64,000 nt of DNA. It comes from Tubiluchus corallicola (taxonomy: Eukaryota; Animalia; Priapulida). The stretch's first letter is position 1, and the number at the start of each line of letters is the position of its first letter. Shown here in pieces: positions 18,693 to 61,028 of this stretch. The stretch is taken from assembly GCA_030141605.1 (NCBI GenBank), contig JAQGDQ010000503.1:96978-160977 (forward strand), given 5' to 3'. The position numbers and the translations under genes are program-made. The notes beneath the pieces were generated by a model. The model was not told the origin of the DNA, ran no database searches, and worked only from the letters and a program-made list of their open reading frames with translations.

Positions 18693-20015
18693 TAAGTGTG
18701 TAGTGATACTAGGCTCAATTGTGTGACACGTAGAGCATTTATATAGGTAGTGTTAACTAATTAAGTGGTCAACAGAAGTCCAATAGGTAATGTTAAAAAT
18801 AACAAAAACTTTATTAAAACTTTTACATTAAAAAGTAAAAAGGTAAAATCATGCCAAACGCCTCGACTAGTATGTCTGCTGAAATTGTGCCATTGGTCAC
18901 GACAACGGTTGACGGTGGCTCCATCAAAACAAAAAAGCATAGGGAAAAAAACGTTAAAAAACTTGTTAACTGAGAGCAGTTCCGAAGATGAAACTGATTA
19001 TTGAATTAGGATAACTCGAACACTTGGTTATTATGCTAGAATAACTCCAAAAGCTCCTAACTAGTACATCAACGTGGAACCGATAAACGTTGATATCCAG
19101 TGAACACTAAGTGAAAATTAAGAGAAATGTAGTTAACATATACAATAAGATTATTCAGATTAATATAATGCACACAAAATCTGTATTCATTGTTCTTTTC
19201 ACATTTTATGCACTCACTTCAAGGCATTAAGATCACACTGCAAAGAAAGAGTGTTTAATGCTGGCAACTGTTGTACTGAGTCACAATCATTTTTTATTTA
19301 TCTAGTTACTATCTGGCATCTCAATATTATTTTGGCATAGATTCTTATCTATCTTAACCTAAGTTATTTTGATTATTTGCATCTCATGATGTCTAGTGAC
19401 CTTTTTATGTCTAGATTTATTTGTTCTTCATTTCTAATTAAATCTACAATTTACTGATTAAAATAAAATACACTTGGTACTTTACACAGAACTCTGCTAG
19501 TTAGTGCATTAACTATTATGTCTTGCCAATGGATGGTTTGCCAATTGTAGCCGATTTGCATAAATGTGTTGCTAAGCAACTTACTTTTTTATCCCTCTGA
19601 AGCAGACATGTACACATTGCAGAAACCGTATACATAGCTGAACAGTCATAATCTATACAGGATAGCTCCCTCAACCTTTATTAATGACTGTGTATCTTGC
19701 ATTCACCGTTGTTGCACTCAGTCAGAATGAGTCATGCTGCGAGGTTTTTGGTAAGCTATTTCGCCTAGCAAAAAATGACACTATGAAGAAAAAGTCAAAA
19801 AAGAAGAAAAAGCAACATTGGCTGATAGGTTTCATTCTTTCTGCGATACAGTGTTAAAGGATCATTATTTTCTTGTTAGCCCCTATTTTTAGAAGAATCT
19901 TTCTAACTTGGAGTTTTTCTTACCTTGACGCCCTGGTTATTACTGAAGTCTGTTATACCAGCAAAGCTTCTTTCGTGGTAACCACGGATTATCGCGTTCA
20001 TGTGGAGTTTCTGTG

Positions 20016-20229
20016 GAAATGGATCTCTGTTATAGTTGGCTTCACGAACAATCCTTTAAAAAGATAAAGCCCTTCCTCCTCAGCTTCAATGTTTGGGAGA
20101 TATACTTCAGCATCAGTGGAGTTCTGGGGAAGGTTTAGTGGTGCTGATGTGCATTTATCTGGGGCGGAGGCAAGAGGGGTGGTCTCTTCCTAATTGTTCG
20201 TGAAGCCAACTATAACAGAGATCCATTTC
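20016..20229. repeat. Local 37-bp perfect inverted repeat with ~140-bp loop (mirrored at about 60573-60787)
   Basis: GAAATGGATCTCTGTTATAGTTGGCTTCACGAACAAT at 20016-20052 and its reverse complement at 20193-20229. Confidence 0.9.
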
Positions 20230-20310
20230 TGCAAGAGTTCAACATAAGTGATAGAGTTATTTTAGTCTTCATTTTTATTTTATTTTTTTATTTTTATTTT
20301 TTTATTTTTT

Positions 20311-21837
20311 TTATAAGTAAGACAACATATTATCAAAGGCACCTGGTCTTTTGAGCGCCATTTGGGTCAGTGTCCTAATGATAGTTCTTCCATATCTATT
20401 GGGCCACTCCTCATTTTGTTCGCTTAAACCATGCCCCACCCATTTGGGTTGGTGACAAATACATTTTGTTTCAAACAGTCTGCATCTTGCACAAAGATTT
20501 CTACAGTATGATCTCCAATTTCTCACATTGTAGTGGAAATTGTGCTTTTTGGACTTCACTAAGACATAAAAAACCCACATAGCCTGAAAATAGGAGTTAG
20601 TCCCTGGATAGAGTAATGATCCGATTCCTTTTAATGCAAACGTCCCCAAGGGGTCAGTTTCATCAAACCAGATTTCTTTGAATCTAACTTCTTCAATCGG
20701 ATCAATGATCCATGTGCTTGATGGTATACATCGGAGGCTGGAGTAAGTTTCAGACAACCTAGAGTGCAATTCCAGCATAACCTCAGTATAGTTGTGAGGT
20801 TCTTTTCCTGCATAATAGAAATTAATGATGTCATTTATTCCTTGGGCGGGTGTGATGTTTACAGTGTCTGCACAGGCTAGCCTATCACAGTAAAAGATAC
20901 ATTCAGTGTTTTCTAGAGAACTTGACCATGGTTTCATTATATAGTATGTGGCATATTGGAATCCTAGTTGAGTTAGTCTAGATATTGTTTTATCTGATAG
21001 ATTTTCTGCAATCAGTTTAAGTAGGACCTTTTTAGGTTTATACTCAAAACAGAGGTCTATTGCAACATCGACAAGATCACAGTAATATGTCGGATTCATG
21101 ACTTCAGCATCAAAAGTCAACACTGAGATTTCACCTCGTCTGAACTGATGTTTTAATGAATTGATTGTCTTTGGGTTAAATAGATCACCGTCAGTAAGGT
21201 TGTTCCTTAGGATCTGTTCCCAGTATTCGACACAATGACGACAAAATGTGTTCAAAGGCTTAGAATTGAAAGTGTCCTCTAAAAGGGACATATTGGTTTC
21301 TACTAAACTATTATAAACTACATACAATGGGTTCATGAGATGCAAAAACCCTGATAAAATTGATCCGTCTCCTTCAGCTAGGCACACAAGACCCCCTGGT
21401 TCGAAGTGAGTACTTCCTAATACTTCTAGAAATTTGTTTATACTAGTGCTGGTTATTCCAAACGGCCTAGCAATGTGGTGTAAATAGTGGCCTTTCCTTC
21501 TGGCTTTTGTGCTTGGTTCCATCCTAGGTAGTCTCACCGTACCCATGGGCGGTCTGATTCTAGATGTTGTTGCTGTTTGCCTGGTCTTGATGTTGATGTT
21601 TTTGATATCTTCAAACTTGTGGGCAACTATGATCCTAGAAGATAGAAACTCAGATAGTGGAGGCAAGTTGATTGTTTCGTTCACTTGGGTGAGTTTAATC
21701 CTACCCCTACTAAGGTGTTTGATTGCTCTTCTCAAATCTGAATAAGTGATATCAGCAGGGATGTAGAGAATTGGTGCTAACTTATTTTCTAAGTATATCC
21801 CTACGCAAGAAGCGTACAATACACACAACCAATACAA
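20311..21837 (-). CDS. Endogenous viral element: C-terminal ~490 aa of a Mononegavirales-like L protein (connector, cap methyltransferase, CTD); 5'-truncated but open
   Basis: K-D-K-E tetrad in order (FGITSTSINK, LTFDAE, VLLKL, KPWSSSLENTECIF) and the SAM-binding motif CLAEGDGS. No introns. The stop codon overlaps TTATAAAAAAAA and is followed by an A-rich tail. The first ~13 codons (TTG start) look host-derived. Confidence 0.85.
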   Translation of the reverse strand: MYWLCVLYASCVGIYLENKLAPILYIPADITYSDLRRAIKHLSRGRIKLTQVNETINLPPLSEFLSSRIIVAHKFEDIKNINIKTRQTATTSRIRPPMGTVRLPRMEPSTKARRKGHYLHHIARPFGITSTSINKFLEVLGSTHFEPGGLVCLAEGDGSILSGFLHLMNPLYVVYNSLVETNMSLLEDTFNSKPLNTFCRHCVEYWEQILRNNLTDGDLFNPKTINSLKHQFRRGEISVLTFDAEVMNPTYYCDLVDVAIDLCFEYKPKKVLLKLIAENLSDKTISRLTQLGFQYATYYIMKPWSSSLENTECIFYCDRLACADTVNITPAQGINDIINFYYAGKEPHNYTEVMLELHSRLSETYSSLRCIPSSTWIIDPIEEVRFKEIWFDETDPLGTFALKGIGSLLYPGTNSYFQAMWVFYVLVKSKKHNFHYNVRNWRSYCRNLCARCRLFETKCICHQPKWVGHGLSEQNEEWPNRYGRTIIRTLTQMALKRPGAFDNMLSYL

Positions 21838-21979
21838 CGAATTATTGAAATTCCGGCAATTCTTAAACTAAGTCCAACTATATTAGTGTCCAATAAAAGG
21901 GCAACAAAACGTTTTATAAAAGTGAACTGCAAACAATTGACACTAAAAAATTGTATCACCTAACATCAATCTATATAAC

Positions 21980-24680
21980 TTACTTGCAGAGAGATACCGC
22001 TTTGCTTAAAACTTGAACGAGCTCGCCAACTCTTCCCAAAGCTGGGTGTTCCCTATAGAGGCTGCTAATGTCCTCCCAACCGAAACCTACATTTGCCTTG
22101 ATGACGGCGAAAAAATGCTTGCACAGCATTCTCGAGTGTTGGAATGAAGGGCAAGAGCAAGAACAGCACTCATCACCATTACCAAATTTTACGGTATAAA
22201 TAGTGGAGGCATCTTGTTCGCTGGAGACATTGAACGTCTTATGTCCAATTACTGTAACTAAGGCTACCTAAGAATATGAAACAGTAAGTACTTAACCTGA
22301 AAATACAAGGCATTATAGCAGCAAATGGTGCCTATTGAAGATTCACTTATATGGAACTACGTTTATTGTATCGCTAACCTGTACAGAAAGCACATTACAT
22401 CAACAACATCATGTATTGCAATATATTGCCGAACACTAAGAAATGTGATGTAATACTTATAAACCGAAATCCATTATTGCTGGTAATTTCTGATTCAAGT
22501 ATACCATACATGTACCTGTGACGGCTTCACTTTCTCCATTTTGTCCCACATATCCTCAAAAATTGTTCTTGGCCTGTTCTGCAGCCAGGATGGGACTTCC
22601 ACAGACCAACTTCTGTACAAGTGAGAGCTCTTCACATTCATCTGCTCATAGCTAGAAAATGTATGAGATCTGAATTAAAAATACAGTTTGCAAATATATT
22701 GGACTGCTCTCCGCTGTCAATGGAGGCAGAACGGATGGCACCGCGGCCTACACCGTGCGGCATGTCTCAACTAACATGTCAATGCCAAACCAAAACCAAA
22801 ATGAATAATAAAATCAAAATGACAATTTATTACAAAAAAATATTCCAAATAGCTTACCGAACAGAGTAGAATAGAGCAAGCCTGAAGTGTGAACAGAGCT
22901 GAGGTGAGACGACCACTGACCAGGATCTACAGCAGACCTACCCTTTTTATAAGCTCAGGTGTGCACGTGACTAGTGGCTCCTACTAACACAAAGTCAGAA
23001 TAAGAGTCGATGTGCTAGTTAAAGCCACGTTCACACGCACACCTGAGAAGTCTGCTGTATTCCCCTGCCAGTATTACACTATCTCATCACAGCCCTGCAG
23101 TACAATATTTTAGATATTTTCTTTACCAATAAATAACATACAACTTTAACCGTTGTAACTTCAGAGAACTACACAAACAAGAATACTTGAGAAACTAGCA
23201 AAAGCTTCTCCAAGCCGAATAACAACCTTATTACAAAATAAACAAATTTAATATCCTGATTTGGTCACCCTGTCTCTCATAAAGGTGCTGCTAATCTGAA
23301 AATCAGGAAATTATGTTAGAAAATAATTTTCCACTTTAATAATCTCAACTGTTTGTTTACAAATGTAACTGTAACTTTCTGTTATTGTTCAATGAAAAAT
23401 AATAACAGATATGGTAGATGAACTTTTGAAAAATAGTACCGCTGGTATTTTGCTGGCAGCAAGTGTGTTATTAGAACATCCAGCAGTTCACTGCCGCCTC
23501 TTGCTGAGAAATCCATATTTCAGATCCTCGTTCATCCTCTCTACACCGTTATTCGTGTTCACAGCCAAGAGGAGTTCTTCTGGCCTAACAGAGCACTGCC
23601 GCCTCTTGCTGAGAAATCCATATTTCAGATCCTCGTTCATTCGCTCTACACCGTTATTGGTGTTCACAGCCAAGAGGAGTTCTTCTGGCCTATAAGCATT
23701 GCTCCATTTCTGAAACGTATTATCTTAACATAGTGGACATGTTAGCTATACTGAACGGTACCGTACAAACAACTTTACGAAAAAAAAGCCTACTTGGTTA
23801 GTAAATTGTGACATTTTACATAAACTGACACAATGCTTATCAGATGGTATTTTGTCAAGTTTTAGAGTTTGCACATTAACATGAACAATTCATTAATTGC
23901 TACCCAATTAAAAGTTTAAAGTTGTTATCCAATTATGGTTTAACCTGTAATATAAAAAATTAATAGAACGTGTAAAACTAATTTATAAATTTAGCTGATT
24001 TAAAAATATCTAATAGGTTAATAACACTCACGTAAATTTCAGTTATACTCACCTTGATTTCTGGCAGCCAGGTTTTACCAAACCAGTGCTGAAGTTTGGA
24101 GCTCTCTTGGTATATCTTGCAGGACTGGAGAGCTCTCAGGGAAGCTTGCAGCTTTGCATCAGAGCTAGCTCTGGCAACTTGTCTTAAGCGGCACTTTATT
24201 TCCTCAACATGTTCTGGATTAGCTGCCACCCCATTTGATCCCTTACTGAGCCATCTTACCCAGGTTTGCTCACGGTGGAAATCACATAAAAATACTTTAA
24301 TGCCTAAAATGCAAGGAACAAAGTTACGCATAGTAAAAGAAGCTGATAATCATGACCACATTAGCATGATTACGTCTTCACCCAACAAAATAATACTCGT
24401 TTTTCAGAAATCTGTACCAATTACATTAACCCCTCCCAAAAACATTTCACTAGTAATGACAGGTTGAGTATTCACTTTTGCACATTGGCACATTTAAGGG
24501 CATGTTCTCACAGGTAAATGTGATCTACATGTAGATATCCTATTGTTTACCTAGAAATGTTTCTTCCAGAGCTAAAGTTTCTTCTGATGCAAAATCCACC
24601 ATTGCAAACTGATGCAAAGGAGTCCAGCTTTTTACAACAGCCAAAGCTTTTGCGATGGTTGTTCTTGTTGCAAATGAAAC
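21980..24680 (-). pseudogene. Intron-containing MULE/Mutator-type transposase with SWIM zinc finger (decayed)
   Basis: Exons encode FAMVDFASEETLALEETF, VFLCDFHREQTWVRW, NTNNGVERMNEDLKYGFL (tandemly duplicated ~105 bp), VPSWLQNRP and the SWIM motif CSCSCPSFQHSRMLCKHFFAV, with GT-AG boundaries. Confidence 0.8.
22700..23104 (-). mobile_element. 405-bp solo LTR (gypsy-like, 4-bp TSD ATAT), copy 1, inside a MULE intron
   Basis: Termini TGTACTGC...GCAGTCCA flanked by ATAT on both sides. The empty site CTAAAATATATTTGC is present at about 58209-58223. It contains CACGTG, TATAAAAAG, TCAGT and a GTAAG donor. Confidence 0.85.
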
Positions 24681-25194
24681 AGTTGAAAGAGCTTATCGTT
24701 TTTGAACTGAAATGAATAATGGCACTAATCAGAGTGTAACTAGCAACACCTTTATACTCGCAACTGCATTTTTCAGCAAATTCTTTATAATTATTGGACT
24801 CATCATCATTGTTCTAAATATGCTTGTTGTCACTGCTATTCTCAAATATAAAAAGTTGCAAACATCGTCGAATTGACTGGTGCTTAATTTGTCAGTGGGT
24901 GATGGATTGTTTGGCAGCATGGCATTGATGCTTGTAGACGGTTCTTGCACATGAATGTTATTTCTGCAAATAAGTGCTTATTTATTGTTATGCAAAAGTT
25001 TTAGTTATGCAAACTAAATTAACGAATGCATCCATAATCGAAAGTAAGTAATGAATCACTAATGCATTTTAGTTTACTGAATAGCGCTCCAAACTGAGTT
25101 TTGCGAAACTCTGTTTCTACTTGTCAGAAAAATTGTCAACTAGTTTACAGCTACAATTTCTTACAATTTTTATTCGTAGCAGCATTCTACACCA

Positions 25195-25749
25195 TTAAAA
25201 TTGTTGTTGAAAGTGACGATAATGTAATTTGCCAAAGATATGCCGAGATGTCACGTGTCTCTTCGAAAAACATAATATATGGTGATCGTCATCATCACTA
25301 TCATCATCTCTCTCGGTCAAGTCAGTCTCGTTGGTAGCCAGCTCCGAATCACAACTCACATACTTCTCGAACGTTGTTTCCGATAAGTTTAGTTCACAGT
25401 GGCGATGAAGTCCCAAATGTTTCTTTCTTGTACAGACATCTCTGCGAGTAAGATATTCCCTCCGCTCGGCAGGCCTTTACACACCGCATTTGCATGTACC
25501 AGATAGTCAGAGCTTTCTCCGGTGGCTCTATATCTGATGTTCGCAATTCCTTCCATTTGTTTGTGACTTGATTTTTTCGTAAGCTTCCTTCAGTTTCTCC
25601 TTAGACGCGAAAATGCTGGATACCGTCTGTTTATTTAGGCCGTATTCTTCATAAATTTTGCTTTGTTTTGCACCAGTCTTGATTTTTTCGATAATCTCGA
25701 TTTTTGTGACGAGCTCAATAGCTTTCCACTTCTGCTTGATACTGCTCAT
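25195..25749 (-). pseudogene. Internally deleted Tigger/pogo (CENP-B-like) transposase
   Basis: MSSIKQKWKAIELVTKIEIIEKIKTGAKQSKIYEEYGLNKQTVSSIFASKEKL is a psq-type HTH. It is followed by a GLPSGGNILL remnant and the C-terminal FEKYVSCDSELAT. The DDE domain is missing. Confidence 0.8.
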
Positions 25750-26399
25750 TGTGCCGTTTTGGTGGTGAGCAAAGGGCAGAAAAATGGCGAAACAATGTTC
25801 GTCTCGTCCATAAACAATACCAACCTCGTTCCCAGCAGGGTTGCCAGTATGGCATTTTCTTCCAGATCCAAAACCGAAATGCTGCTAGTAGAGTAGTAGT
25901 AAAATCTTTATTTGCCATTTTAAAACATTGACCATCATATTAAAAGACAGACAATCAGTGTTAGTTCATATAAAAAACATACACTGTTCTGGGCAAATGC
26001 GTCTGGTGCAAGCTAAACTATAAGTGCAACTAGAAATTCAAAAATAAAATATAAACTAGTTTTGCAAGGTCTAGGAAAAAGGAAATTATGATTTGAGTAA
26101 GTATCATCGTGTTCGTATGTCGGATATTCAAAACGAGTCATTAAATGTTTTTTTTAATTTAGACTTGAATATTGATAAAGAGCTGCTGTGTTTTAGTGAT
26201 GTCGGTAATGAATTCCTAGGTTGTATTGCTTGCTTAGTTATGGAATTCTTTCCACATTGGTTGTTCGTTTTAACATCATTAGAATGTACATCGTTCTATT
26301 AGTTATTTAGAATGTACATCGTTCTATTAGTTATACAGAAGTAAAATTGATTCAAAGTCCAAAATTCTGAATAGGTTACAATTCAATTACATTTACATG

Positions 26400-26640
26400 C
26401 ATAGCAAATGTTTAGTAGACCTTGTGTAGTTCTGCAACAATTTTAGGAGAATTCCACTCATGAGTTATGTGCTGATAATAACAAAGCTGATTCAATGATG
26501 GTGTTTTGTGTATGTCATAGTTTGAACACTCACAAAAATAATGGCGGGGGCTCTCAGTCGAACTGTTGCAGCTACAAGAGGGGTCATCGATGTATTCCTA
26601 GAAAACTTGTGAAAAATTGGCAATGAACATATTTGTTCAA
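26400..26640 (-). pseudogene. Probable LINE ORF2 C-terminal (CCHC-like) fragment; empty site of the nucleoprotein-like EVE
   Basis: Translates as EYIDDPSCSCNSSTESPRHYFCEC, similar to the C.C....ES..HYF..C tail of CR1/L2 ORF2. Mirrored at about 54330-54564. Confidence 0.45.
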
Positions 26641-26944
26641 ATCTGTTAAATTAAAACTATAAATAGCTGCCATACATAATTTGATGTTGAGTTTTAACAG
26701 CCTGTAAAACAGACGTTTTATACAGCAAATGTGCTGGCGGAAAGTATTATGGCAATACACACCTACATATGAACAAACGCACTCTCTCCCTATAACTTGC
26801 TAAATTTGGCTTAATTGTACACATGGATCTGCACTTATAAATTATTGTTGGTCTTCAAGACTGACAAATGTGTGTGTGCCCTAGACAAGCATACGTAACA
26901 CCACCATACACCAAGTGTGCCACACTACAGTACTCTATATTTAC

Positions 26945-29900
26945 AAGTTTCAGATTTTCCATCACTGAATTTCCTTAAGGCAACTAAGAAGTCGTATTCA
27001 TCCGGAATGAAGCGCCAATTTTCGCGCCAGATGAAGAACTTCCTACTGATATAGGAAAACAATTAAACTCCTTTTTGGTATCACCAATTTCCTGGCAAGC
27101 TGACTGTACAACAGAAAGTTTCCTAAAAAATTTTATTTCCAGCATGCCAGTGATTTTCTTACATCCTGCTATGTCTTCTTCGTTAGGTGTTCTCTTCAGT
27201 GGTTTACACTCTTTGTGCATCTCAGGTATGTACAATAAGTGGCCCACTGTTTCTTTATACTCGTCGTTCATTGTTATTACGTTCACTAAATTGTGTATAT
27301 CCAGTGCTGTCAGCCCTTTATTGTTTGGCTTTTCAAGGCAGACTCCATGCTAACATTGTGTAACGTCACTTCTTGTACCTGTGTGTGAATGCGCAGCTGC
27401 GTATAGTGGAATGTCACCTTCTTTATTACAAATGTCAAGACCACTTCCGTACAGCAGAGCTGTGTTGTCAAACTTACCATTTTTATTTATAAAATAATGT
27501 AGGCTTAGCTCAGACCTCTCTATTGCAGCAATCGACTTATTGCTAGAGCCAGGAACTCCTAACAGATGTTGGAGTAAAACACGTAGTGTTTCTGTGCTTC
27601 CAACTTTAACTACAGCTATAAGAGCTGTCTGTTCATCCTTATTGCTAGAGCTGGGACTACAGCTATAAGAGCTGTCTGTTCGTCCTTTTATGCTAGAGCT
27701 GGGACTACAGCTATAAGAGCTGTCTGTTCATCCTTTTATGCTAGAGCTCTGACTACAGCTATAAGAGCTGTTTGTTCGTCCTTTTATGCTAGAGCTGGGA
27801 CTACAGCTATAAGAGCTGTCTGTTCGTCCTTTTATGCTAGAGCTGGGACTACAGCTATAAGAGCTCTCTGTTCATCCTTTTATGCTAGAGCTCTGACTAC
27901 AGCTATAAGAGCTCTCTGTTCACCCTTATTGCTAGAGCTGGGAACTCCTGACAAATGTTGCAGTAAAATGCATAGTGTTTCTGTGCTTCCACCTTTAATT
28001 AGCACCATGACAAAGTAATAATTCCAGCGTTTCATGATGCCCGTGTGCAGCTGCAGTCATTAGAGCTGTCACATCAAATGCATCACAACCATTACAATCA
28101 GTATTGCGGTCAAGAGCCAAGAGACATTCAACAGTAACATTGCCATGGGAAAAGTCTGTTTGTTATCCTTGTTGTTACATGATGTTAGAATGCAACTTCT
28201 CTGCCATAACAAGTTTATGGCTTGTTCATCTCTGTTACCAGCAGCAATCAAAGGTGCAGACCAGCCGTCTTTGGATTTGGCATTACAAATAGCACCAAAA
28301 GCCAGAAGAATCAATATGGTTGCATAATTGCTAGCACGTGTAGCATACATAAGAGGCGTCCATGTATCTTTATTACTGACATTACAGTCAGCATTACTTC
28401 TAAGCAGCAATTTAAGTCAGCAACACCAGCGACTTAACTCCTTCCCTACATTCGAGTCTCCCTTCTTAGCTGCCCAGATAAGAGCAGTCTGTCCAAGCCT
28501 GTCACTGACATTACAATCAGCTCCATTAGCTAGTAAGAGCTGAACTACATTCAAATGTCCTTTATAAGCTGCTAGCATCAGAGCAGTTTGTCCATACTTG
28601 TCACAGACATTACAATCAGCTTCACTAGCTACTAAGAACTGAACTACATTCACATGTCCTTTAAAAGTTGCTTTCATGACAGGAGTCCATCCATTGTTGT
28701 CACTTACATTACAATCAGCTCCACTAGCTAATAAGCTCTATAAGCTACTAGCATCAGAACAGTTTGTCCATGCTTCTCACAGACATTACAATCACCTCCA
28801 CTAGCTAGTAAGAGCTGAACTACATTCAAATGTCCTTTATAAGCTGCTAGCATCAGAGCAGTTTGTCCATACTTGTTACAGACATTACAATCATACAATC
28901 AGCTCCACCAGCTAGTAAGAGATGAACTACATTCAAATGTCCTTTATAAGCTGCTAGCATCAGAGCAGTCTGTCCATACTTGTCACAGACATTACAATCA
29001 TACAATCTGCTCCACTAGCTACTAAGAGCTGAACTACATTCACATGTCCTTTATAAGCTGCTAGCATCAGAGCAGTTTGTCCATACTTGTCGCAGACATT
29101 ACAATCATACAATCTGCTCCACTAGCTACTAAGAGCTGAACTACATTCACGTGTCCTTTATAAGCTGCTTTCATAAGAGTCGTCCATCCATCATAATCAG
29201 CTCTACTAGCTAGTAAGAGCTGAACTACATCCACATGTCCATTGTAAGCTGCTTTCATGGCAGGTGTCCATCCATTGTTGTCACTTATGTTACAATCAGC
29301 TTCACTAGCTACTAAGAGCTGAACTACATTCAAATGTCCTTTATAAACTGCTAGCATCAGAGGAGTTTTTCCATACTTGTCACAGACATTACAATCATAC
29401 AATCACCTCCACTAGCTAGTAAGAGCTGAACTACATTCACATGTCCCTTATAAGCTGCTAGCATCAGAGCAGTTTGTCCATACTTGTCACAGACATTACA
29501 ATCATACAATCAGCTCCACTAGCTAGTAAGAGCTGAACTACATTCACATGTCCTTTATAAGCTGCTAGCATCAGAGCAGTTTGTCCGTACTTGTCACAGA
29601 CATTACAATCATACAATCAGCTCCACTAGCTAGTAAGAGCTGAACTACATTCAAATGTCCTTTATAAGCTGCTAGCATCAGAGCAGTTTGTCCATACTTG
29701 TCACAGACATTACAATCATACAATCACCTCCACTAGCTAGTAAGAGCTGAACTACATTCACATGTCCTTTATAAGCTGCTAGCATCAGAGCAGTTTGTCC
29801 GTACTTGTCACAGACATTACAATCATACAATCACCTCCACTAGCTAGTAAGAGCTGAACTACATTCACATGTCCTTTATAAGCTGCTAGCATCAGAGCAG

Positions 29901-30190
29901 TTTGTCCGTACTTGTCACAGACATTACAATCATACAATCAGCTCCACTAGCTAGTAAGAGCTGAACTACATTCAAATGTCCTTTATAAGCTGCTAGCATC
30001 AGAGCAGTTTGTCCATACTTGTCACAGACATTACAATCATACAATCACCTCCACTAGCTAGTAAGAGCTGAACTACATTCACATGTCCCTTATAAGCTGC
30101 TAGCATCAGAGCAGTTTGTCCATACTTGTCACAGACATTACAATCATACAATCAGCTCCACTAGCTAGTAAGATCTGAACTACATTCAAG
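26945..30190 (-). pseudogene. Ankyrin-repeat plus cGAS-like/Mab-21 nucleotidyltransferase (cGLR-like) pseudogene, left copy
   Basis: Many ankyrin units ([29 protein letters not shown]), then FPISVGSSSSGAKIG-[frameshift]-PDEYDFLVAL at about 26975-27060, which is the GS...[DE]h[DE]h NTase motif. Multiple stops and frameshifts. Confidence 0.75.
27608..27942. repeat. 48-bp tandem repeat derived from half an ankyrin unit (about 7 copies; about 14 at 52645-53360)
   Basis: Unit ACTACAGCTATAAGAGCTGTCTGTTCGTCCTTTTATGCTAGAGCTGGG. On the ankyrin strand it reads KDEQTALIAVV. Confidence 0.85.
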
Positions 30191-34076: not shown

Positions 34077-34109
34077 TTAAGAAGCTTTATTAAGTTTTTA
34101 TAATAATTT

Positions 34110-34585: not shown

Positions 34586-34599
34586 AATTTCAAATACAA

Positions 34600-37500: not shown

Positions 37501-37501
37501 C

Positions 37502-37572
37502 GTAGTAGTAGTAGTAGTAGCAGTAGTAGTAGCAGTAGTAGTAGCAGTAGTAGTAGTAGCAGTAGTAGTAGT

Positions 37573-37602: not shown

Positions 37603-37604
<2 letters not shown>

Positions 37605-44520: not shown

Positions 44521-44552
<32 letters not shown>

Positions 44553-44624
44553 ACTACTACTACTGCTACTACTACTACTGCTACTACTACTGCTACTACT
44601 ACTGCTACTACTACTACTACTACG

Positions 44625-47515: not shown

Positions 47516-47530
47516 ATTGTATTTGAAATT

Positions 47531-47947: not shown

Positions 47948-47980
47948 AAATTAATATAAAAACTTAATAAAGCTTCTTAA

Positions 47981-49660: not shown

Positions 49661-50807
49661 TTAAACTAAAAAAGGACATTTAAATATTTTTGTTGTTGTT
49701 CTTTCATGCAATACTGGCTATCCTCAGTTGGTTTAATGACACTCGAATACCAAGTCAGTGCAGCGCATACTTGTACACAGTGAAATGATTCTGAATTGTG
49801 ATCTCAAAACAGAAAAACAACCCAACAGTTTAACACAGGGTATAAAAAACTTCTAATGACCCTTGGTAGGTGTTATGGGCAAATTACCCATATAATTTGT
49901 TTTTTTCCCGCATGAGGGAGCCAAAAGAGTTGACTGGTTATAGCAGAGACTTGTAATGTGGATAATGCAATTTTTATGTGAGAAATTTAATGTCATGCTT
50001 CAACCATAAACAGTGTGTGCTCTCTAGCCAAACGAAGTAAGTGATTTTTGTAAATCTAAGTTTATTAATTAGAAAGCAATTTTCTGTGTAATTTTTTTTT
50101 GTTCAAATTTCTGTAGTTTTGTTCAAATTGCATTACTGAAAATTTTATGTATTCTTTTGTTTTTCTCCTTTAGAAAATAAAGACTGCAATAAACACCTTA
50201 TGAAAGGAACTGTCGTGTTTTGCTGTGTTAACAGTAGGGGTCTTGGAGAATTTGCAGTCGAAAAAAAGAAACCGTGCTGCACGATTGTGTATTACTATTT
50301 TTAATGCATGTGCAATGATGGATATTACGAGTTAGTTTTGTTAGAACGCTTTTTCTACACAGTCTTGAGTCAATTTTCAGCACCTTCGAAAGTCAGTTTA
50401 CCGATATATTGCAAAGCCAGCCCATGTTGCTTTACTTTGCTTAAAAAAACTCAGATTTACTTTGCTTCAATTATGCTTTGTTTCAAACACTATTGCATGT
50501 TTTTGTAAAACAGTTGAGTTTTCTTAGTGAATCAAAACATATTTAGCAGTCGTAATTAAGGGTGATTACAAATGCATACATAATATATCGCTCTGATCCT
50601 ACTGTCCTATATGTATTAAAAATGTCATGGTTTCCACCTAGAAGCTATAGCGATATTCGTACAGAGATTAACTTGTCTATGTGTAATCTTAAAACATTTA
50701 ATATCAGCGTAAGATAGTAACAAATACTTTACTTTACTGTAACAATTTTGAGTTATACGTACTTTACTGTAACAAATACTTTACTTTACTGTAACAAATA
50801 AATGACA

Positions 50808-53800
50808 CTTGAATGTAGTTCAGATCTTACTAGCTAGTGGAGCTGATTGTATGATTGTAATGTCTGTGACAAGTATGGACAAACTGCTCTGATGCTAGCA
50901 GCTTATAAGGGACATGTGAATGTAGTTCAGCTCTTACTAGCTAGTGGAGGTGATTGTATGATTGCAATGTCTGTGACAAGTATGGACAAACTGCTCTGAT
51001 GCTAGCAGCTTATAAAGGACATTTGAATGTAGTTCAGCTCTTACTAGCTAGTGGAGCTGATTGTATGATTGTAATGTCTGTGACAAGTACGGACAAACTG
51101 CTCTGATGCTAGCAGCTTATAAAGGACATGTGAATGTAGTTCAGCTCTTACTAGCTAGTGGAGCTGATTGTATGATTGTAATGTCTGTGACAAGTATGGA
51201 CAAACTGCTCTGATGCTAGCAGCTTATAAGGGAATGTAGTTCAGCTCTTACTAGCTAGTGGAGGTGATTGTATGATTGTAATGTCTGTGACAAGTATGGA
51301 CAAACTCCTCTGATGCTAGCAGTTTATAAAGGACATTTGAATGTAGTTCAGCTCTTAGTAGCTAGTGAAGCTGATTGTAACATAAGTGACAACAATGGAT
51401 GGACACCTGCCATGAAAGCAGCTTACAATGGACATGTGGATGTAGTTCACTTCTTACTAGCTAGTGGAGCTGATTATGATGGATGGACGACTCTTATGAA
51501 AGCAGCTTATAAAGGACACGTGAATGTAGTTCAGCTCTTAGTAGCTAGTGGAGCAGATTGTATGACTGTAATGTCTGTGACAAGTATGGACAAACTGCTC
51601 TGATGCTAGCAGCTTATAAAGGACATTTGAATGTAGTTCATCTCTTACTAGCTGGTGGAGCTGATTGTATGATTGTAATGTCTGTGACAAGTACGGACAA
51701 ACTGCTCTGATGCTAGCAGCTTATAAAGGACATTTGAATGTAGTTCAGCTCTTACTAGCTAGTGGAGCTGATTGTAATGTCTGTGAGAAGTATGGACAAA
51801 CTGTTCTGATGCTAGCAGCTTATAAAGGACATGTGAATGTAGTTCAGCTCTTAGTAGCTAGTGAGGCTGATTGTAACGTAAGTGACAAAAATGGATGGAC
51901 TCCTGTCATGAAAGCAACTTTTAAAGGACATGTGAATGTAGTTCAGTTCTTAGTAGCTAGTGAAGCTGATTGTAATGTCTGTGATAAGTATGGACAAACT
52001 GCTCTGATGCTAGCAGCTTATAAAGGACATTTGAATGTAGTTCAGCTCTTACTAGCTAATGGAGCTGATTGTAATGTCAGTGACAGGCTTGGACAGACTG
52101 CTCTTATCTGGGCAGCTAAGAAGGGACACTCGAATGTAGGGAAGGAGTTAAGTTGCTGGTGCTGCTGACTTAAATTGCTGCTTAGAAGTAATGCTGACTG
52201 TAATGTCAGTAATAAAGATACATGGACGCCTCTTATGTATGCTACACGTGCTAGCAATTATGCAACCATATTGAATCTTCTGGCTTTTGGTGCTATTTGT
52301 AATGCCAAATCCAAAGACGGCTGGTCTGCACCTTTGATTGCTGCTGGTAACAGAGATGAACAAGCCATAAACTTGTTATGGCAGAGAAGTTGCATTCTAA
52401 CATCATGTAAATACAAGGATAACAAACAGACTTTTCCCATGGCAATGTTACTGTTGAATGTCTCTTGGCTCTTGACCGCAATACTGATTGTAATGGTTGT
52501 GATGCATTTGATGTGACAGCTCTAATGACTGCAGCTGCACACGGGCATCATGAAACGCTGGAATTATTACTTTGTCATGGTGCTAATTAAAGGTGGAAGC
52601 ACAGAAACACTACGCATTTTACTGCAACATTTGTCAGGAGTTCCCAGCTCTAGCAATAAGGGTGAACAGAGAGCTCTTATAGCTGTAGTCCCAGCTCTAG
52701 CATAAAAGGACGAACAGACAGCTCTTATAGCTGTAGTCAGAGCTCTAGCAATAAGGATGAACAGACAGCTCTTATAGCTGTAGTCAGAGCTCTAGCATAA
52801 AAGGATGAACAGAGAGCTCTTATAGCTGTAGTCCCAGCTCTAGCATAAAAGGATGAACAGACAGCTCTTATAGCTGTAGTCAGAGCTCTAGCATAAAAGG
52901 ATGAACAGAGAGCTCTTATAGCTGTAGTCCCAGCTCTAGCATAAAAGGATGAACAGAGAGCTCTTATAGCTGTAGTCCCAGCTCTAGCACAAAAGGACGA
53001 ACAGACAGCTCTTATAGCTGTAGTCAGAGCTCTAGCATAAAAGGACGAACAGACAGCTCTTATAGCTGTAGTCAGAGCTCTAGCATAAAAGGATGAACAG
53101 ACAGCTCTTATAGCTGTAGTCCCAGCTCTAGCACAAAAGGACGAACAGACAGCTCTTATAGCTGTAGTCCCAGCTCTAGCATAAAAGGACAAACAGACAG
53201 CTCTTATAGCTGTAGTCAGAGCTCTAGCATAAAAGGATGAACAGACAGCTCTTATAGCTGTAGTCCCAGCTCTAGCATAAAAGGACGAACAGACAGCTCT
53301 TATAGCTGTAGTCAGAGCTCTAGCAATAAGGATGAACAGACAGCTCTTATAGCTGTAGTTAAAGTTGGAAGCACAGAAACACTACGTGTTTTACTCCAAC
53401 ATTTGTCAGGAGTTCCCGGCTCTAGCAATAAGTCGATTGCTACAATAGAGAGGTCTGAGCTAAGCCTACATTATTTTATAAATAAAAATGGTAAGTTTGA
53501 CAACACAGGTCTGCTGTACGGAAGTGGTCTTGACATTTGTAATAAAGAAGGTGACATTCCACTATACGCAGCTGCGCATTCACACACAGGTACAAGAAGT
53601 GACGTTACACAATGTTAACATGGAGTCTGCCTTAAAAAGCCAAACAATAAAGGGCTGACAGCACTGGATATATACAATTTAGTGAACGTAATAACAATGA
53701 ACGACGAGTATAAAGAAACAGTGGGCCACTTATTGTACATACCTGAGACGCACAAAGAGTGTAAACCACTGAAGAGAACACCTACCGAAGAAGACATAGC

Positions 53801-54015
53801 AGGATGTAAGAAAATCACTGGCATGCTGGAATTAAATTTTTTAGGAAACTTTCTGTTGTAGAGTCAGCTTGCCAGGGAATTGGTGAAACCAAAAAGGAGT
53901 TTAATTGTTTTCCTATATCAGTAGGAAGTTCTTCATCTGGCACGAGAATTGGCCGGATGAATACGATTTCTTAGTTGCCTTAAGGAAATTCAGTGATGGA
54001 AAATCTGAAACTTGT
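50808..54015 (+). pseudogene. Ankyrin plus cGLR-like pseudogene, right copy
   Basis: Ankyrin ORFs 51268..51603, 51665..52168 and 52175..52516. VGSSSSGTRIG-[frameshift]-PDEYDFLVAL at about 53920-53982. Confidence 0.75.
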
Positions 54016-54496
54016 AAATATAGAGTACTGTAGTGTGGCACACTTGGTGTATAGTGGTGTTACGTATGCTTGTCTAGGGCACACACACATTTGTCAGTCT
54101 TGAAGACCAACAATAATTTATAAGCGCAGATCCATGTGTACAATTAAGCCAAATTTAGCAAGTTATAGGGAGAGAGTGTGTTTGTTCATATGTAGGTGTG
54201 TATTGCCATAATGCTTTCCGCCAACACATTTGCTGTATCAAACGTCTGTTTTACAGGCTGTTAAAACTCAACATCAAATTATGTATGGCAGCTATTTATA
54301 GTTTTAATTTATCAGATTTGAACAAATAGGTTTATTGCCAATTTTTCACAAGTTTTCTAGGAATACATCGATGACCCCTCTTGTAGCTGCAACAGTTCGA
54401 CTGAGAGCCCCCGCCATTATTTTTGTGAGTGTTCAGACTATGACATACACAAAACACCATCATTGAATCAGCTTTGTTATTATCAGCACATAACTC

Positions 54497-55624
54497 ATGA
54501 GTGGAATTCTCCTCAAATTGTCGCAGAACTACACAAGGTCTACTAAACATTTGCTATGCATGTACTGGTGCGTAGATAATATGAAAAGGCACCCTGCCTT
54601 GGCTACAGGTATAATAGTTTATCTGTTTACCAGAAATCTCAACATAGAGTCTCAATTAGCAATAAATACTGGGGGCTTAATTGAGGACCCAGAGCATACT
54701 GTAATAGAGACAGCTGATTACTTTAAAACTGCTACCAAAGATGGCAAGGCAATGATTTACAATGCTTTATCCCTGCTGTTTTCAGAAGTTCCGGAGGAGA
54801 GAGAAAAAAGGTGGAAAAGGGTCAAAGCCGCCATTGCCTCTATGGGTTACGACCCTGACGAATGGAGTCTTGAAAGGACTGATGGCAAGTGTGGGCAGCA
54901 GTACAAGGATGGACATATGCAGCCCGCCAGAAAGGCCATCAAGAAGTATTTGTCTTTGACTGACGTCATCTGTGAAGAAGGGAAAGCCCTGGCAAACTAC
55001 ACTCTGGATATGATTGGCAAAAATGATCTCAAAGCTATTTTCTTCATAGAAAGCGCTTTCCAAGAGGTCCCAAAACTGTTCAACGCTAGATTGCTAGGAG
55101 AATCAGAAACAAGAGCATTTCTAAAAGCACTAGAGATAGCAGAAGATCGGAAGATGGCTACTGTTGAGAGAGATCCTGCTCTTCAGCATAAGAATTTCCC
55201 GATGATCCATGGGTTGACCATCTCTTTCCTAAAAGAACTTTTCTATCTTGGCTACTGCGGTCCATTCGGCCGACAAAATATTGATAATGCTTTTGGAGAT
55301 TTCTACAGAGACGTCCCTCTACCACCAACGATACAACGCAATAAGAGATCCATCAATGCTCTAGCTGTAGAGTTCAAGAAAAAATCCGAAGCAAAAGGGG
55401 ATGCGTATAGTGGGCGGTGGGGTTATTGGCAGTCTGACGGCAGCTTCCAAGATGATGGGGGCATCGACAAACAATTCTATGATGAAGAAGATCAGCCCTT
55501 TGATATGGAGGCCATGAAAGATCTAATTAAGACAATTAAGGCAAAAGGGGCAGGAAGAGATGGATCACAAGAGAAAGAAAGAAGAGACTCTGACGATTTC
55601 GATTATGCAAGTTATCGTAGATAA
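54497..55624 (+). CDS. Endogenous viral element: probable Mononegavirales-like nucleoprotein, 5'-truncated and fused in frame to a host-derived ATG
   Basis: Intronless 375-aa ORF with higher GC and purine content than its flanks. It looks mostly helical, has LQHKNFPMIHGL (compare the L...(N/S)FP.L motif of borna/nyami-like N) and ends in an acidic/basic tail. Bases 54565-55637 are absent from the left arm. Confidence 0.6.
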   Translation: MSGILLKLSQNYTRSTKHLLCMYWCVDNMKRHPALATGIIVYLFTRNLNIESQLAINTGGLIEDPEHTVIETADYFKTATKDGKAMIYNALSLLFSEVPEEREKRWKRVKAAIASMGYDPDEWSLERTDGKCGQQYKDGHMQPARKAIKKYLSLTDVICEEGKALANYTLDMIGKNDLKAIFFIESAFQEVPKLFNARLLGESETRAFLKALEIAEDRKMATVERDPALQHKNFPMIHGLTISFLKELFYLGYCGPFGRQNIDNAFGDFYRDVPLPPTIQRNKRSINALAVEFKKKSEAKGDAYSGRWGYWQSDGSFQDDGGIDKQFYDEEDQPFDMEAMKDLIKTIKAKGAGRDGSQEKERRDSDDFDYASYRR

Positions 55625-56260
55625 AATTTCTTCTTTCTAAATGTGATTGAATTGTAACCTATTCACAATTTTGGACTTTTGAATCAATTTTACTTCTGTA
55701 TAACTAATAGAATGATGTACATTCTAATGATGTTAAAACGAACAACCAATATGGAAAGAATTCCATAACTAAGCAAGCAATACAACTTAGGAATTCATTA
55801 CCGACATCACTAAAACACAGCAGCTCTTTATCAATATTCAAGTCTAAATTAAAAAACATTTAATGACTCGTTTTGAATATCCGACATACGAACACGATGA
55901 TACTTACTCAAATCATAATTTCCTTTTTCCTAGACCTTACTAAACTAGTTTATATTTATTTTTTGAATTTCTAGTTGCACTTATAGTTTAGCTTGCACCA
56001 GACGCATTTGTCCAGAACAGTGTATGTTTTTTATATGAACTAACACTGATTGTCTGTCTTTTAATATGATGGTCAATGTTTTATAAAATGGCAATTAAAG
56101 ATTTTACTACTACTACTACTACTAGCAGCATTTCGGTTTTGGATCTGGAAGAAAATGTCATACTGGCAACCCTGCTGGGAACGAGGTTGGTATTGTTTAT
56201 GGACAAGACGAACATTGTTTCGCCATTTTTCTGCCCTTTGTTCACCACCAAAACGGCACA

Positions 56261-56965
56261 ATGAGCCGTATCAAGCAGAAGTGGAAAGCTATTGAGCTCG
56301 TCACGAAAATCGAGATTATCGAAAAAATCCAGGCTGGTGCAAAACAAAGCAAAATTTGTGAAGAATACGGCCTAAATATAGTCCTCCCCGTGGAGTAGTC
56401 GCAACTGCTGAAGGACCAATGCCTCTTTCTTCTACCCGATCCTATCCTCGTAGAATACGCCTTCCTACCTCCCATTATGGAAACTTCGTTTATGATCCAG
56501 TAGTGGAAAACAAAGTAAAATTTGTGAAGAATACGGCCTAAATAAACAGACGGTATCCAGCATTTTCGCGTCTAAGGAGAAGCTGAAAGAAGCTTACGAA
56601 AAAAATCAAGTCACAGACAAATGGAAGAAATTGCGAACATCAGATATAGAGCCACTGGAGAAAGCTATGACTATCTGGTACATGCAAATGCGGTGTGTAA
56701 AGGCCTGCCGAGCGGAGGGAATATCTTACTCGCAGAGATGTCTGTACAAGAAAGAAACGTTTGGGACTTCATCGCCACTGAACTAAACTTATCGGAAACA
56801 ACGTTCGAGAAGTATGTGAGTTGTGATTCGGAGCTGGCTACCGACGAGAGAGATGATGATAGTGATGATGACGATCACCATATATTATGTTTTTCGCAGA
56901 GACACGTGACATCTCGGCATATCTTTGGCAAATTACATTATCGTCAGTTTCAACAACAATTTTAA
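56261..56965 (+). pseudogene. Tigger/CENP-B-like transposase remnant, right copy, interrupted by a ~130-bp foreign insert
   Basis: Mirror of 25195-25749. The insert at about 56378-56506 is flanked by a duplicated ~37-bp AAAACAAAG.AAAATTTGTGAAGAATACGGCCTAAAT. Confidence 0.75.
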
Positions 56966-57689
56966 TGGTGTAGAGTGCTGCTACTAATAAAAATTGTAAG
57001 AAATTTTAGCCAATTTGTAAACTAGTTGACAATTTTTCTGACAAGTAGAAACTGAGTTTTGCAAATCTCAGTTTGGAACGCTATTCAGTAAACTAAAATG
57101 CATTAGTGATTCATTACTTACTTTCGATTATGGATGCATTCGTTAATTTAGTTTGCATAACTAAAACATAACTAAAACTTTTGCATAACAATAAATAAGC
57201 ACTTATTTGCAGAAATAACATTCATGTGCAAGACACCGTCTACAAGCATCAATGCCATGCTGCCACAAACAATCCATCACCCACTGACAAATGAAGCACC
57301 AGTCAATTCTACATTGTTTGCAACTTTTTATATTTGAGAATAGCAGTGAAAACAAGCATATTTAGAACAATGATGATGAGTCCAATAATTATGAAGAATG
57401 TGCCGAAAAATGCTGCTGCGAGTACGAAAGTGTTGCTAGTTACACTCTGATTAGTGCCATTATTCATTTCAGTTCAAAAATGATTAACTGTTTCAACTGT
57501 TTCATTAGCAACAAGAACCTCTTTAGCAGAATACACGCATATATTACACAGAATGTATAGTTAACTGCTACATTGAGAGGCAGAAATTAAGCAATGTCCT
57601 TAGAGTGATTATTTTGAGAGATCGTAATGCACAAAGAAAAAAGGTTCAGTATAGCTAACATGTCCACTATGTTAAGATAATACGTTTCA

Positions 57690-58930
57690 GAAATGGAGCA
57701 ATGCTTATAGGCCAGCAGAACTCCTCTTGGCTGTGAACACCAATAACGGTGTAGAGCGGATGAACGAGGATCTGAAATATGGATTTCTCAGCAAGAGGCG
57801 GCAGTGCTCTTTAAGTGAACTGCTCGTTATTCCAATAAAACACTTTCTGCCAGCAAAATATCAGCGGTACTATTTTTTAAAAGTTCATCTACCATATCTG
57901 TTATTATTTTTCATTGCACAATAACAGAAAGTTACAGTTACATTTGTAAACAAACAGTTGAGATTATTAAAGTGGAATATTATTTTCTAACATAAATTCC
58001 TGATTTTCAGATTAGCAGCACCTTTCTGAGAGAGACAGGGTGACCAAATCAGGATATTAAATTTGTTTATTTTGTAATACGGTTGTTATTTGGCTTGGAG
58101 TAGCTTTTGCTAGTTTCTCAAGTATTCTTGTTTGTGTAGTCCTCTGAAGTTACAACGGTTAAAGTTGTATGTTATATATTGGTGAAGAAAATGTCTAAAT
58201 AAATTTGTCTAAAATATATTTGCAAACTGTATTTTTAATTCAGATCTCGTACATTTTCGCAGCTATGAGCAGATGAATGTGAAAAACTGTCACTTGTACA
58301 AAAGTTGGTCTGTGCAACTCCCATCCTGGCTGCAGAACAGGCCAAGAACAATTTTTGAGGATATGTGGGACAAAATGGAGAAAGTGAAGCCGTCACAGGT
58401 ACATGTATGGTATACTTGAATCAGAAATTACCAGCAATAATGGATTTCGGTTTATAAGTATTACATCACATTTCTTAGTGTTCGGCAATATATTGCAATA
58501 CATGATGTTGTTGATGTAATGTGCTTTCTGTACAGGTTAGCGATACAATAAACGTAGTTCCATATAAGTGAATCTTCAATAGGCACCATTTGCTGCTATA
58601 ATGCCTTGTATTTTCAGGTTAAGTACTTACTGTTTCATATTCTTAGGTAGCCTTAGTTACAGTAATTGGACATAAGACGTTCAATGTCTCCAGCGAACAA
58701 GATGCCTCCACTATTTATACCGTAAAATTTGGTAATGGTGATGAGTGCTGTTCTTGCTCTTGCCCTTCATTCCAACACTCGAGAATGCTGTGCAAGCATT
58801 TTTTCGCCGTCATCAAGGCAAATGTAGGTTTCGGTTGGGAGGACATTAGCAGCCTCTATAGGGAACACCCAGCTTCGGGAAGAGTTGGCGAGCTCGTTCA
58901 AGTTTTAAGCAAAGCGGTATCTCTCTGCAA
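57690..58930 (+). pseudogene. MULE-SWIM transposase remnant, right-arm copy lacking the upstream exons and the 405-bp LTR
   Basis: NTNNGVERMNEDLKYGFLSKRRQCSLSELL..FLP exon, WLQNRP exon and SWIM exon. Confidence 0.75.
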
Positions 58931-59076
58931 GTAAGTTATATAGATTGATGTTAGGTGATACAATTTTTTAGTGTCAATTGTTTGCAGTTCACTTTTATAA
59001 AACGTTTTGTTGCCCTTTTATTGGACACTAATATAGTTGGACTTAGTTTAAGAATTGCCGGAATTTCAATAATTCG

Positions 59077-60491
59077 TTGTATTGGTTGTGTGTATTGTAC
59101 GCTTCTTGCGTAGGGATATACTTAGAAAATAAGTTAGCACCAATTCTCTACATCCCTGCTGATATCACTTATTCAGATTTGAGAAGAGCAATCAAACACC
59201 TTAGTAGGGGTAGGATTAAACTCACCCAAGTGAACGAAACAATCAACTTGCCTCAACTATCTGAGTGAGACTACCTAGGATGGAACCAAGCACAAAAGCC
59301 AGAAGGAAAGGCCACTATTTACACCACATTGCTAGGCCGTTTGGAATAACCAGCACTAGTATAAACAAATTTCTAGAAGTATTAGGAAGTACTCACTTCG
59401 AACCAGGGGGTCTTGTGTGCCTAGCTGAAGGAGACGGATCAATTTTATCAGGGTTTTTGCATCTCATGAACCCATTGTATGTAGTTTATAATAGTTTAGT
59501 AGAAACCAATATGTCCCTTTTAGAGGACACTTTCAATTCTAAGCCTTTGAACACATTTTGTCGTCATTGTGTCGAATACTGGGAACAGATCCTATGGAAC
59601 AACCTTACTGACGGTGATCTATTTAACCCAAAGACAATCAATTCATTAAAACATCAGTTCAGACGAGGTGAAATCTCAGTGTTGACTTTTGATGCTGAAG
59701 TCATGAATCCGACATATTACTGTGATCTTGTCGAAGTTGCAATAGACCTCTGTTTTGAGTATAAACCTAAAAAGGTCCTACTCAAACTGATTGCAGAAAA
59801 TCTATCAGATAAAACAATATCTAGACTAACTCAACTAGGATTCCAATATGCCACATACTATATAATGAAACCATGGTCAAGTTCTCTAGAAAACACTGAA
59901 TGTATCTTTTACTGTGATAGGCTAGCCTGTGCAGACACTGTAAACATCACACCCGCCCAAGGAATAAATGACATCATTAATTTCTATTATGCAGGAAAAG
60001 AACCTCACAACTATACTGAGGTTATGCTGGAATTGCACTCTAGGTTGTCTGAAACTTACTCCAGCCTCCGATGTATACCATCAAGCACATGGATCATTGA
60101 TCCGATTGAAGAAGTTAGATTCAAAGAAATCTGGTTTGATGAAACTGACCCCTTGGGGACGTTTGCATTAAAAGGAATCGGATCATTACTCTATCCAGGG
60201 ACTAACTCCTATTTTCAGGCTATGTGGGTTTTTTATGTCTTAGTGAAGTCCAAAAAGCACAATTTCCACTACAATGTGAGAAATTGGAGATCATACTGTA
60301 GAAATCTTTGTGCAAGATGCAGACTGTTTGAAACAAAATGTATTTGTCACCAACCCAAATGGGTGGGGCATGGTTTAAGCGAACAAAATGAGGAGTGGCC
60401 CAATAGATATGGAAGAACTATCATTAGGACACTGACCCAAATGGCGCTCAAAAGACCAGGTGCCTTTGATAATATGTTGTCTTACTTATAA
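59077..60491 (+). pseudogene. L-protein EVE, copy 2, with a 112-bp frameshifting deletion
   Basis: Nearly identical to 20311..21837 but 112 bp shorter. The deletion joins CTGAG to TGAGACTACC at about 59265, leaving the MTase/CTD (59265..60491) open. Confidence 0.85.
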
Positions 60492-61028
60492 AAAAAATAA
60501 AAAAATAAAAATAAAAAAATAAAATAAAAATGAAGACTAAAATAACTCTATCACTTATGTTGAACTCTTGCAGAAATGGATCTCTGTTATAGTTGGCTTC
60601 ACGAACAATTAGGAAGAGACCACCCCTCTTGCCTCCGCCCCAGATAAATGCACATCAGCGCCACTAAACCTTCCCCAGAACTCCACTGATGCTGAAGTAT
60701 ATCTCCCAAACATTGAAGCTGAGGAGGAAGGGCTTTATCTTTTTAAAGGATTGTTCGTGAAGCCAACTATAACAGAGATCCATTTCCACAGAAACTCCAC
60801 ATGAACGCGATAATCCGTGGTTACCACGAAAGAAGCTTTGCTGGTATAACAGACTTCAGTAATAACCAGGGCGTCAAGGTAAGAAAAACTCCAAGTTAGA
60901 AAGATTCTTCTAAAAATAGGGGCTAACAAGAAAATAATGATCCTTTAACACTGTATCGCAGAAAGAATGAAACCTATCAGCCAATGTTGCTTTTTCTTCT
61001 TTTTTGACTTAGTAAATATCTAAAATAT

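Follow-up and report, generated by a model that had tools for sequence, protein, structure and literature searches.

The 64,000-nucleotide stretch of DNA analysed here (hereafter the window, numbered from its first letter) comes from contig JAQGDQ010000503.1 of the priapulid Tubiluchus corallicola (assembly GCA_030141605.1, positions 96,978 to 160,977 of the forward strand). It contains two long arms in inverted orientation, in which remnants of transposons and of a host pseudogene lie together with a fragment of a viral L gene. An initial annotation of the same sequence took this region for a palindrome and a candidate source of hairpin-derived or PIWI-interacting RNAs (piRNAs) against viruses. 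We describe the features of the locus and argue that the palindrome itself is, by somewhat more than an even chance, two alleles joined head to head in the assembly.

The inverted arms

Self-BLAST and global alignment of the window place the arms at 19792-39062 and 61010-43011, with about 4 kb of spacer between them, as the initial annotation had described; also in agreement with it, no intact host gene was seen in the region. Over 12 clean blocks, picked to exclude tandem arrays and large indels, the arms differ by 206 substitutions in 14,045 aligned bases (1.47%) and by 19 short indels. Divergence varies from block to block, from 0.2% in the outer 2.7 kb, through an abrupt switch near 22595 to as much as 6.7% just past this point, to 0.7-3.7% deeper in. 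Larger indels of 112 bp, about 410 bp (a solo long terminal repeat, LTR), about 900 bp, about 1.1 kb (piggyBac), 166 bp and 1,075 bp are arm-specific: the solo LTR, the 900 bp, which belong to a Mutator-like element (MULE), and the piggyBac segment are found in the left arm only, and the 1,075-bp insert in the right arm only.

Contigs of four public runs were mapped on positions 19501-39500 and 42901-62900 of the window; three of the runs come from one sample, S1, and the fourth, run X3, from a sample of uncertain kind, S2. Wherever an indel between the arms could be checked, both of its forms were found in these contigs. An artefact in which the main arms are one read folded back upon itself is ruled out by the 1,075-bp insert, for which the filled and the empty site are both present; variants of both arms occur in short-read contigs, and the arms are therefore not a single-read fold-back, as their substitutions and element-scale indels had already suggested to the initial annotation.

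Viral and orphan insertions

A minus-strand open frame of 518 codons (20311-21867) appears, from about 21813 onward, to be the 5'-truncated cap-methyltransferase and C-terminal region of a mononegavirus-like L protein, i.e., an endogenous viral element (EVE). The frame matches the Pfam family Methyltrans_Mon_2nd (PF14314) with E 0.0014 and 18.4 bits, below the cut-off of 25.2; it aligns to the start of the methyltransferase domain in the paramyxovirus-type L chain of PDB structure 8izl (E 0.017); its atlas neighbours are FtsJ-like (0.93), with the family found on 22% of the members of that cluster; and K-D-K-E-like residues can be read by eye in the proper order (K145, D253, K284 and E322). 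The first three lines of evidence, each weak alone, agree that this is probably the cap-methyltransferase end of L, in support of the viral L sequence reported by the initial annotation. The polymerase core is absent from the fragment, and large-database searches found no relative of it. A structure-model search retrieved FtsJ-type methyltransferases at Z 6.3-6.8 (1ej0, root mean square deviation 3.2, 102 aligned residues), below unrelated small domains, and is not counted here; the structure models of the L frame and of the orphan frame discussed below are both poor (predicted local distance difference test score, pLDDT, of 37).

Directly 3' of the L stop codon, on the same strand, lies an A-rich tract (20271-20310). 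The position of such a tract right after a 5'-truncated frame suggests capture of a viral mRNA, and the tract is likely, to judge from its sequence, a relic of the poly(A) tail. A 36-37-bp inverted duplication (20016-20052 and 20193-20229) is found just downstream of this tail. The right-arm copy of L (59265-60491, plus strand) is without the 112 bp of 21536-21647, and the deleted form is present in record 26 of run X4. The same record (20651-22073) spans L together with the adjoining MULE fragment, so that L is integrated in host DNA; that the three S1 runs holding the insertion are DNA is our guess. The L insert is young, polymorphic and very divergent, with its frame still open.

Sample S2 holds a further partial copy of L with seven differences and other flanks, corresponding to 21095-21813 of the window (X3 record 18; a fork at 21813 is seen in X2), and one variant, at 21217, which is in none of the L copies of the window, occurs also in S1. 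The partial copy may extend further into the viral sequence. Around the viral insert, S2 also differs from the window in its tandem-type junction (60885>58325, X3), and the 3-kb unit seems to rearrange repeatedly. A canonical splice was considered for this joint and rejected, since the nearest splice-like sites lie 7-11 bases away from both ends. In X3, pieces of L and of the orphan insert show an enrichment of about 10- to 20-fold over high-copy repeats, with no cover at 50238-50904; this could reflect RNA or another genotype, and we do not use it as evidence of expression. None of the runs found to contain the stretch is on record as RNA, which speaks neither for nor against its transcription.

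The 1,075-bp insert of the right arm (54565-55639, plus strand) is intronless and has one open reading frame (ORF) of 347 aa, starting at the ATG at 54581. In X2, a contig of 1,173 bp that covers its filled site shows 0 differences and has a depth of 109.6x; the empty site is at 85.6x. The initial annotation called the product N-like, after viral nucleoproteins; this label is unproven, as none of the searches, Pfam among them, found a homologue. A fold search with the orphan model was empty, which at pLDDT 37 is uninformative, and by base composition the insert is not separable from host elements. We regard a viral origin as evenly balanced against a non-viral one. A 9-base motif stands just before the ATG and again over the stop codon, in the manner of a repeated gene-boundary signal, and the empty site has a 5-base direct repeat and may be the footprint of a deletion instead of a pristine site.

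The proposal that the arms are loaded with RNA-virus EVEs was overstated: a single viral fragment is supported, which makes up 8% of the left arm, and the only other candidate is the orphan insert, 6% of the right arm.

The spacer and the outer junctions

The spacer (39063-43010) begins with about 390 bp that include a 72-bp tandem and have no match elsewhere in the window, followed by the 5' part and the array of a satellite-bearing repeat element. This element (39457-43303, plus strand), recognized by its homology to a shorter copy at 34108-34585, is a high-copy repeat with an expanded 29-bp array; in the contig mapping, loose ends at 43303 and 38770 show where it stops. The 29-bp satellite (39671-43013, 119 copies) makes up most of the spacer and is in a single orientation (112 forward motifs and 0 reverse). 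The 3' part of the element forms the right arm's inner end; since the element is continuous into that arm, the join between right arm and satellite is natural, and 39062/39063 is the novel junction. There is no N gap anywhere in the window. Among the contigs listed none spans the centre; 39501-42900 lies outside the mapped stretch, and in the bins at the junctions high-copy repeats drown any gap in depth between the copies.

Copies of arm sequence continue past 61010 to the end of the window, at 64000, beyond what the initial annotation had described. An additional LTR-bearing copy of 21181-23122, found by self-BLAST (61011-62952, minus strand), is joined to the outer end of the right arm, and the corresponding junction, 23119>19792, is seen at 74.4x in X2. 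It is followed by a second fold-back (62950-64000, plus strand), in which 60751-61801 is repeated in inverse as 64000-62950. This surplus copy starts with 248 noisy bases holding 8 short indels and 14 substitutions and then becomes perfect, with 529 bp identical; at its start, short indels are 24-fold more frequent than between the arms. An indel-rich start turning into a perfect copy suggests a folded-back read. The fold-back at 62950 is therefore probably such a read built into the contig, which likely carries a read-level artefact close to the arms.

Copy number of the arms

Over 1,173 bp, S1 contigs are identical to the sequence of the right arm, and they carry the junctions of both arms; on these grounds S1 is taken to have the assembled genotype, and serves as a depth control and not as independent support. 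In run X2, all five arm- or side-specific contigs are at 74-110x (median 86), with junctions specific to the left arm (19792-39062, plus strand) at 86-93x and contigs specific to the right arm (43011-61010, minus strand) at 80-110x; sequence shared by the arms is at 158-190x. Junction contigs that come from other loci have, among the rows listed, a median of 180x and a minimum of 143x (n=17), 15 of them falling at 143-218x and two higher. The tables favour well-supported rows; next to the junctions listed there are 11 further joints, 7 of which were identified from a second table, leaving at most 4 hidden. The ratio of arm-specific depth to that of other-locus junctions is 0.47 in X2 and 0.45 in X1, where the medians are 4.5x and 10x and the noise is greater. 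Arm-specific junctions are thus at about half the depth of other loci, and each arm is present about once per diploid genome, the genome-wide depth being taken to be that of the other-locus junctions. The initial annotation had named half depth on each arm, together with a lack of reads across the centre, beforehand as the outcome that speaks against a palindrome, and the first of these two is what S1 has.

The flow of copies through the junctions in X2 gives an account of the surroundings. Outflow at 19792 is about 253-329x, roughly three units, of which the duplication junction supplies one at 74x, leaving 180-255x, or at least two arm-units, for the flank; a bin-based estimate that shares inputs with this one gives 145-211x for the flank in four of five models. 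At 23119 the outflow of 167x corresponds to two LTR-bearing copies, as against three in the window, where the duplication junction is shown twice.

Origin of the palindrome

We consider it somewhat more probable than all other arrangements together that the window holds two alleles, one of which carries a tandem duplication of 3.3 kb, and that the assembly connected them head to head by way of the satellite spacer. Allele A, to which the left arm likely belongs, would consist of the flank and that arm; allele B would consist of the flank, a second copy of 19792-23122 in tandem and the right arm. If the spacer of about 4 kb is inverted between the alleles, the assembly graph could have been crossed the wrong way at this point, and such a crossing would produce a palindrome that is false and yet gapless. 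Heterotype false duplications are described as recognizable chiefly by their haploid depth (PMC9516828), and the block-wise divergence of 0.2-6.7%, with its switch near 22595, fits allelic recombination.

Several observations weigh against this. The spacer inversion that the model needs is not observed, the window is gapless, and false duplications are, in the account of PMC9516828, most often separated by a gap; the same source describes true allele-specific duplications at haploid depth. A palindrome on one homologue only, with the flank included in its arms, predicts depths identical to those found. The other-locus junctions look homozygous (17 of the 17 visible in X2 are at 143x or more), which is odd for a genome whose alleles are 1.5% apart. 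In X1 the flank is estimated at 3.8-5.9x in four of five models, near the arm-specific level, and one bin model gives a half-depth flank in X2 too (81-90x), in contradiction to the 262x measured at 20142. The genome-wide depth, moreover, is derived and not measured, and the identity of the S1 genotype with the assembly is deduced from exact matches.

The main alternative is a real fold-back palindrome on one chromosome copy, for instance on a sex-limited or B chromosome or in a presence/absence segment, whose arms have diverged and have been partly homogenised by conversion. Such an origin would account for the gapless sequence, for the equal depth of the variants of both arms, for the apparent homozygosity of other loci and for the X1 flank depth near one unit, and the pairing of one natural with one novel inner junction is what a fold-back followed by a flip of the spacer should leave. 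It needs, however, either a duplicated flank or a second homologue in which the flank is retained and the 19 kb are missing, as follows from the copy flow in X2; it has to invoke conversion to explain an outer divergence of 0.2% against a mean of 1.5%; and the adjacent fold-back at 62950 looks artefactual. We hold this alternative to be distinctly less probable than misjoined alleles, though still a serious one. A palindrome on both homologues, as the initial annotation implied, is very improbable: it holds only if about 90x is the diploid depth in X2, in which case every one of the 17 visible other-locus junctions would have to be present in at least two copies. The remaining probability goes to other arrangements.

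Strand bias and predicted small-RNA function

Whichever way the arms are arranged on the chromosome, their cargo is uniform in orientation. All seven coding fragments supported by Pfam in 1-39062 are on the minus strand (p 0.016), and the bias reaches to the left of 19792, beyond the region that the initial annotation considered. In the flank, a DUF6729 relic is found at 11932-12900 (E 1e-41 and 5e-24). In the left arm, the L fragment is followed by MULE transposase fragments (21983-24349) with a SWIM finger (PF04434, E 1.1e-6; the remainder was read by eye), a Tigger/pogo fragment (25531-25884; CENP-B_N, E 2.6e-4), an ankyrin-repeat pseudogene with frame-breaking 107-bp repeats (27350-30200; E down to 4e-53), a broken piggyBac-type transposase (31654-33406; DDE_Tnp_1_7, E 2e-72), of which about 1.1 kb is absent from the right arm, and the 5' part of a long interspersed nuclear element (LINE) with its endonuclease (34789-37626; Exo_endo_phos, E 8.7e-4), in which no reverse transcriptase was found. 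The MULE, Tigger, piggyBac and LINE assignments of the initial annotation are hence borne out by Pfam. The solo LTR (22700-23104), which has TG...CA ends and a 4-bp flanking direct repeat, is a high-copy sequence (bin depth 48,268x in X2). Rfam gave 0 matches.

Further fragments in the flank, at 4-384, 982-1398 and 5870-6400, are on the same minus strand; we take them, by eye and with no Pfam or other database match, to be P-element-like, LINE ORF1-like and hAT-like, respectively. The orphan frame of the right arm agrees with the bias as well. The left flank also holds 35-bp satellite arrays at 3771-5871 and 7741-11146 (about 60 and 97 copies, respectively) as well as an 83-bp array at 14018-15009 (12 copies), so that the window as a whole is rich in satellites.

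Next to the ankyrin repeats, at 26394-27349 on the minus strand, the reading frames suggest a broken nucleotidyltransferase-like relic, possibly of a cGAS-like receptor (cGLR). Fusions of ankyrin repeats with cGLRs exist, and the active-site motif is given as h[QT]GS X8-20 [DE]h[DE]h X50-90 h[DE]h (PMC9980059). The relic has the GS loop and the acidic pair, located across a frameshift near 27000, and is cut near 26394; the [QT] position is mismatched, no third acid was found at the stated spacing, and the frame has no Pfam, PDB or database match. Of the ankyrin-cGLR relic of the initial annotation, then, the ankyrin half stands by Pfam, and the cGLR half is a likeness at the level of a split motif. 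Variant contigs at 147-218x in X2 over 26394-30700 point to a paralogue of this relic elsewhere in the genome, possibly its parent gene.

With all the cargo on the minus strand, one plus-strand transcript would be antisense to all of it. The arrangement of the sequence makes the locus a likely unistrand trap of the piRNA type, in which a plus-strand precursor, antisense to the trapped fragments, would be processed into primary piRNAs directed against transposons and the cognate virus. Strong strand bias is characteristic of flamenco-like clusters (PMC10643416) and is also seen in the core clusters of mosquitoes, which carry antisense EVEs (10.1101/2022.08.22.504762); EVE integrations of Aedes are described as giving rise to piRNAs and not to small interfering RNAs (siRNAs) (PMC5497376). 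The trap function is a prediction, and we give misjoined alleles and a trap of this kind, taken jointly, an even chance. That a transcript would be antisense to nearly all cargo, as the initial annotation proposed for inward transcription of either arm, is upheld by the orientation of the seven fragments and does not need the palindrome; its hairpin is weakened, since a hairpin needs both arms on one molecule and each arm is at half depth.

The same fragments could instead be neutral heterochromatic debris without a role in small-RNA production, their bias being due to chance or to insertion preference, an explanation that overlaps with the structural alternatives above. The satellite-rich setting and the small number of fragments with database support (seven) are in its favour; it has to contend with the fact that DNA transposons, a LINE, a host pseudogene and a copy resembling viral mRNA, unrelated as these classes are, all share one strand, and on balance we think it unlikely. 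Less likely by far is the most elaborate combination, a real hemizygous palindrome of at least 41 kb inside a unistrand piRNA cluster. There, one precursor would read the left arm in antisense and the right arm in sense, its duplex of about 16 kb would feed both the siRNA and the piRNA pathway, directed at a divergent negative-strand RNA virus (represented by the L fragment and an unrecognisable viral gene), and alleles rearranging fast around the viral insert would amount to a heritable polymorphic antiviral memory.

Related systems and implications

Among the closest parallels are the core unistrand piRNA clusters of Aedes (10.1101/2022.08.22.504762; PMC5497376), as far as these sources describe them. 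In both cases fragments of negative-strand RNA viruses lie among transposon remnants in one orientation, with local duplications and polymorphism between samples; in the locus described here, however, a single viral fragment is supported, DNA transposons and a LINE make up most of the cargo, and the production of piRNAs is a prediction. The flamenco-like clusters of Drosophila share the strong strand bias of trapped fragments, which in PMC10643416 is driven by Gypsy, whereas no Gypsy coding sequence, only the one solo LTR, was found in this locus. Heterotype false duplications, in the description of PMC9516828, resemble the arms in the haploid-level depth of both copies, in copy-specific variants in the reads and in the location of the copies on the same contig; they differ in that the copies here are inverted and have no gap between them. 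Hairpin-RNA loci of Drosophila likewise consist of an inverted repeat in which pieces of transposons or genes are found, and are defined in PMC10317233 by a transcript and Dcr-2-dependent 21-nt siRNAs, whereas here the evidence is genomic and the repeat itself is in doubt. With the L cap methyltransferase of Mononegavirales (PF14314; PDB 8izl) the viral fragment shares the start-of-domain motif, the glycine-rich S-adenosylmethionine motif and the order of the K-D-K-E-like residues, though at a very great distance.

The locus is likely of an ordinary kind, a transposon trap with strand bias, an EVE and polymorphic alleles, displayed by the assembly as a palindrome. Were the palindrome real and transcribed through, hairpin siRNA and piRNA memory would be joined in one locus, a case that did not appear among the papers listed by our literature searches. 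If the misjoin is true, it is a warning that a long and diverged palindrome in the assembly of a repeat-rich animal genome may consist of alleles crossed at a satellite. There would then still be a candidate unistrand piRNA cluster at this locus, in which a young L fragment from a negative-strand RNA virus, its frame still open, is accompanied by an orphan ORF of 347 aa that differs between the alleles, and the capture of EVEs would thus be testable within one species.

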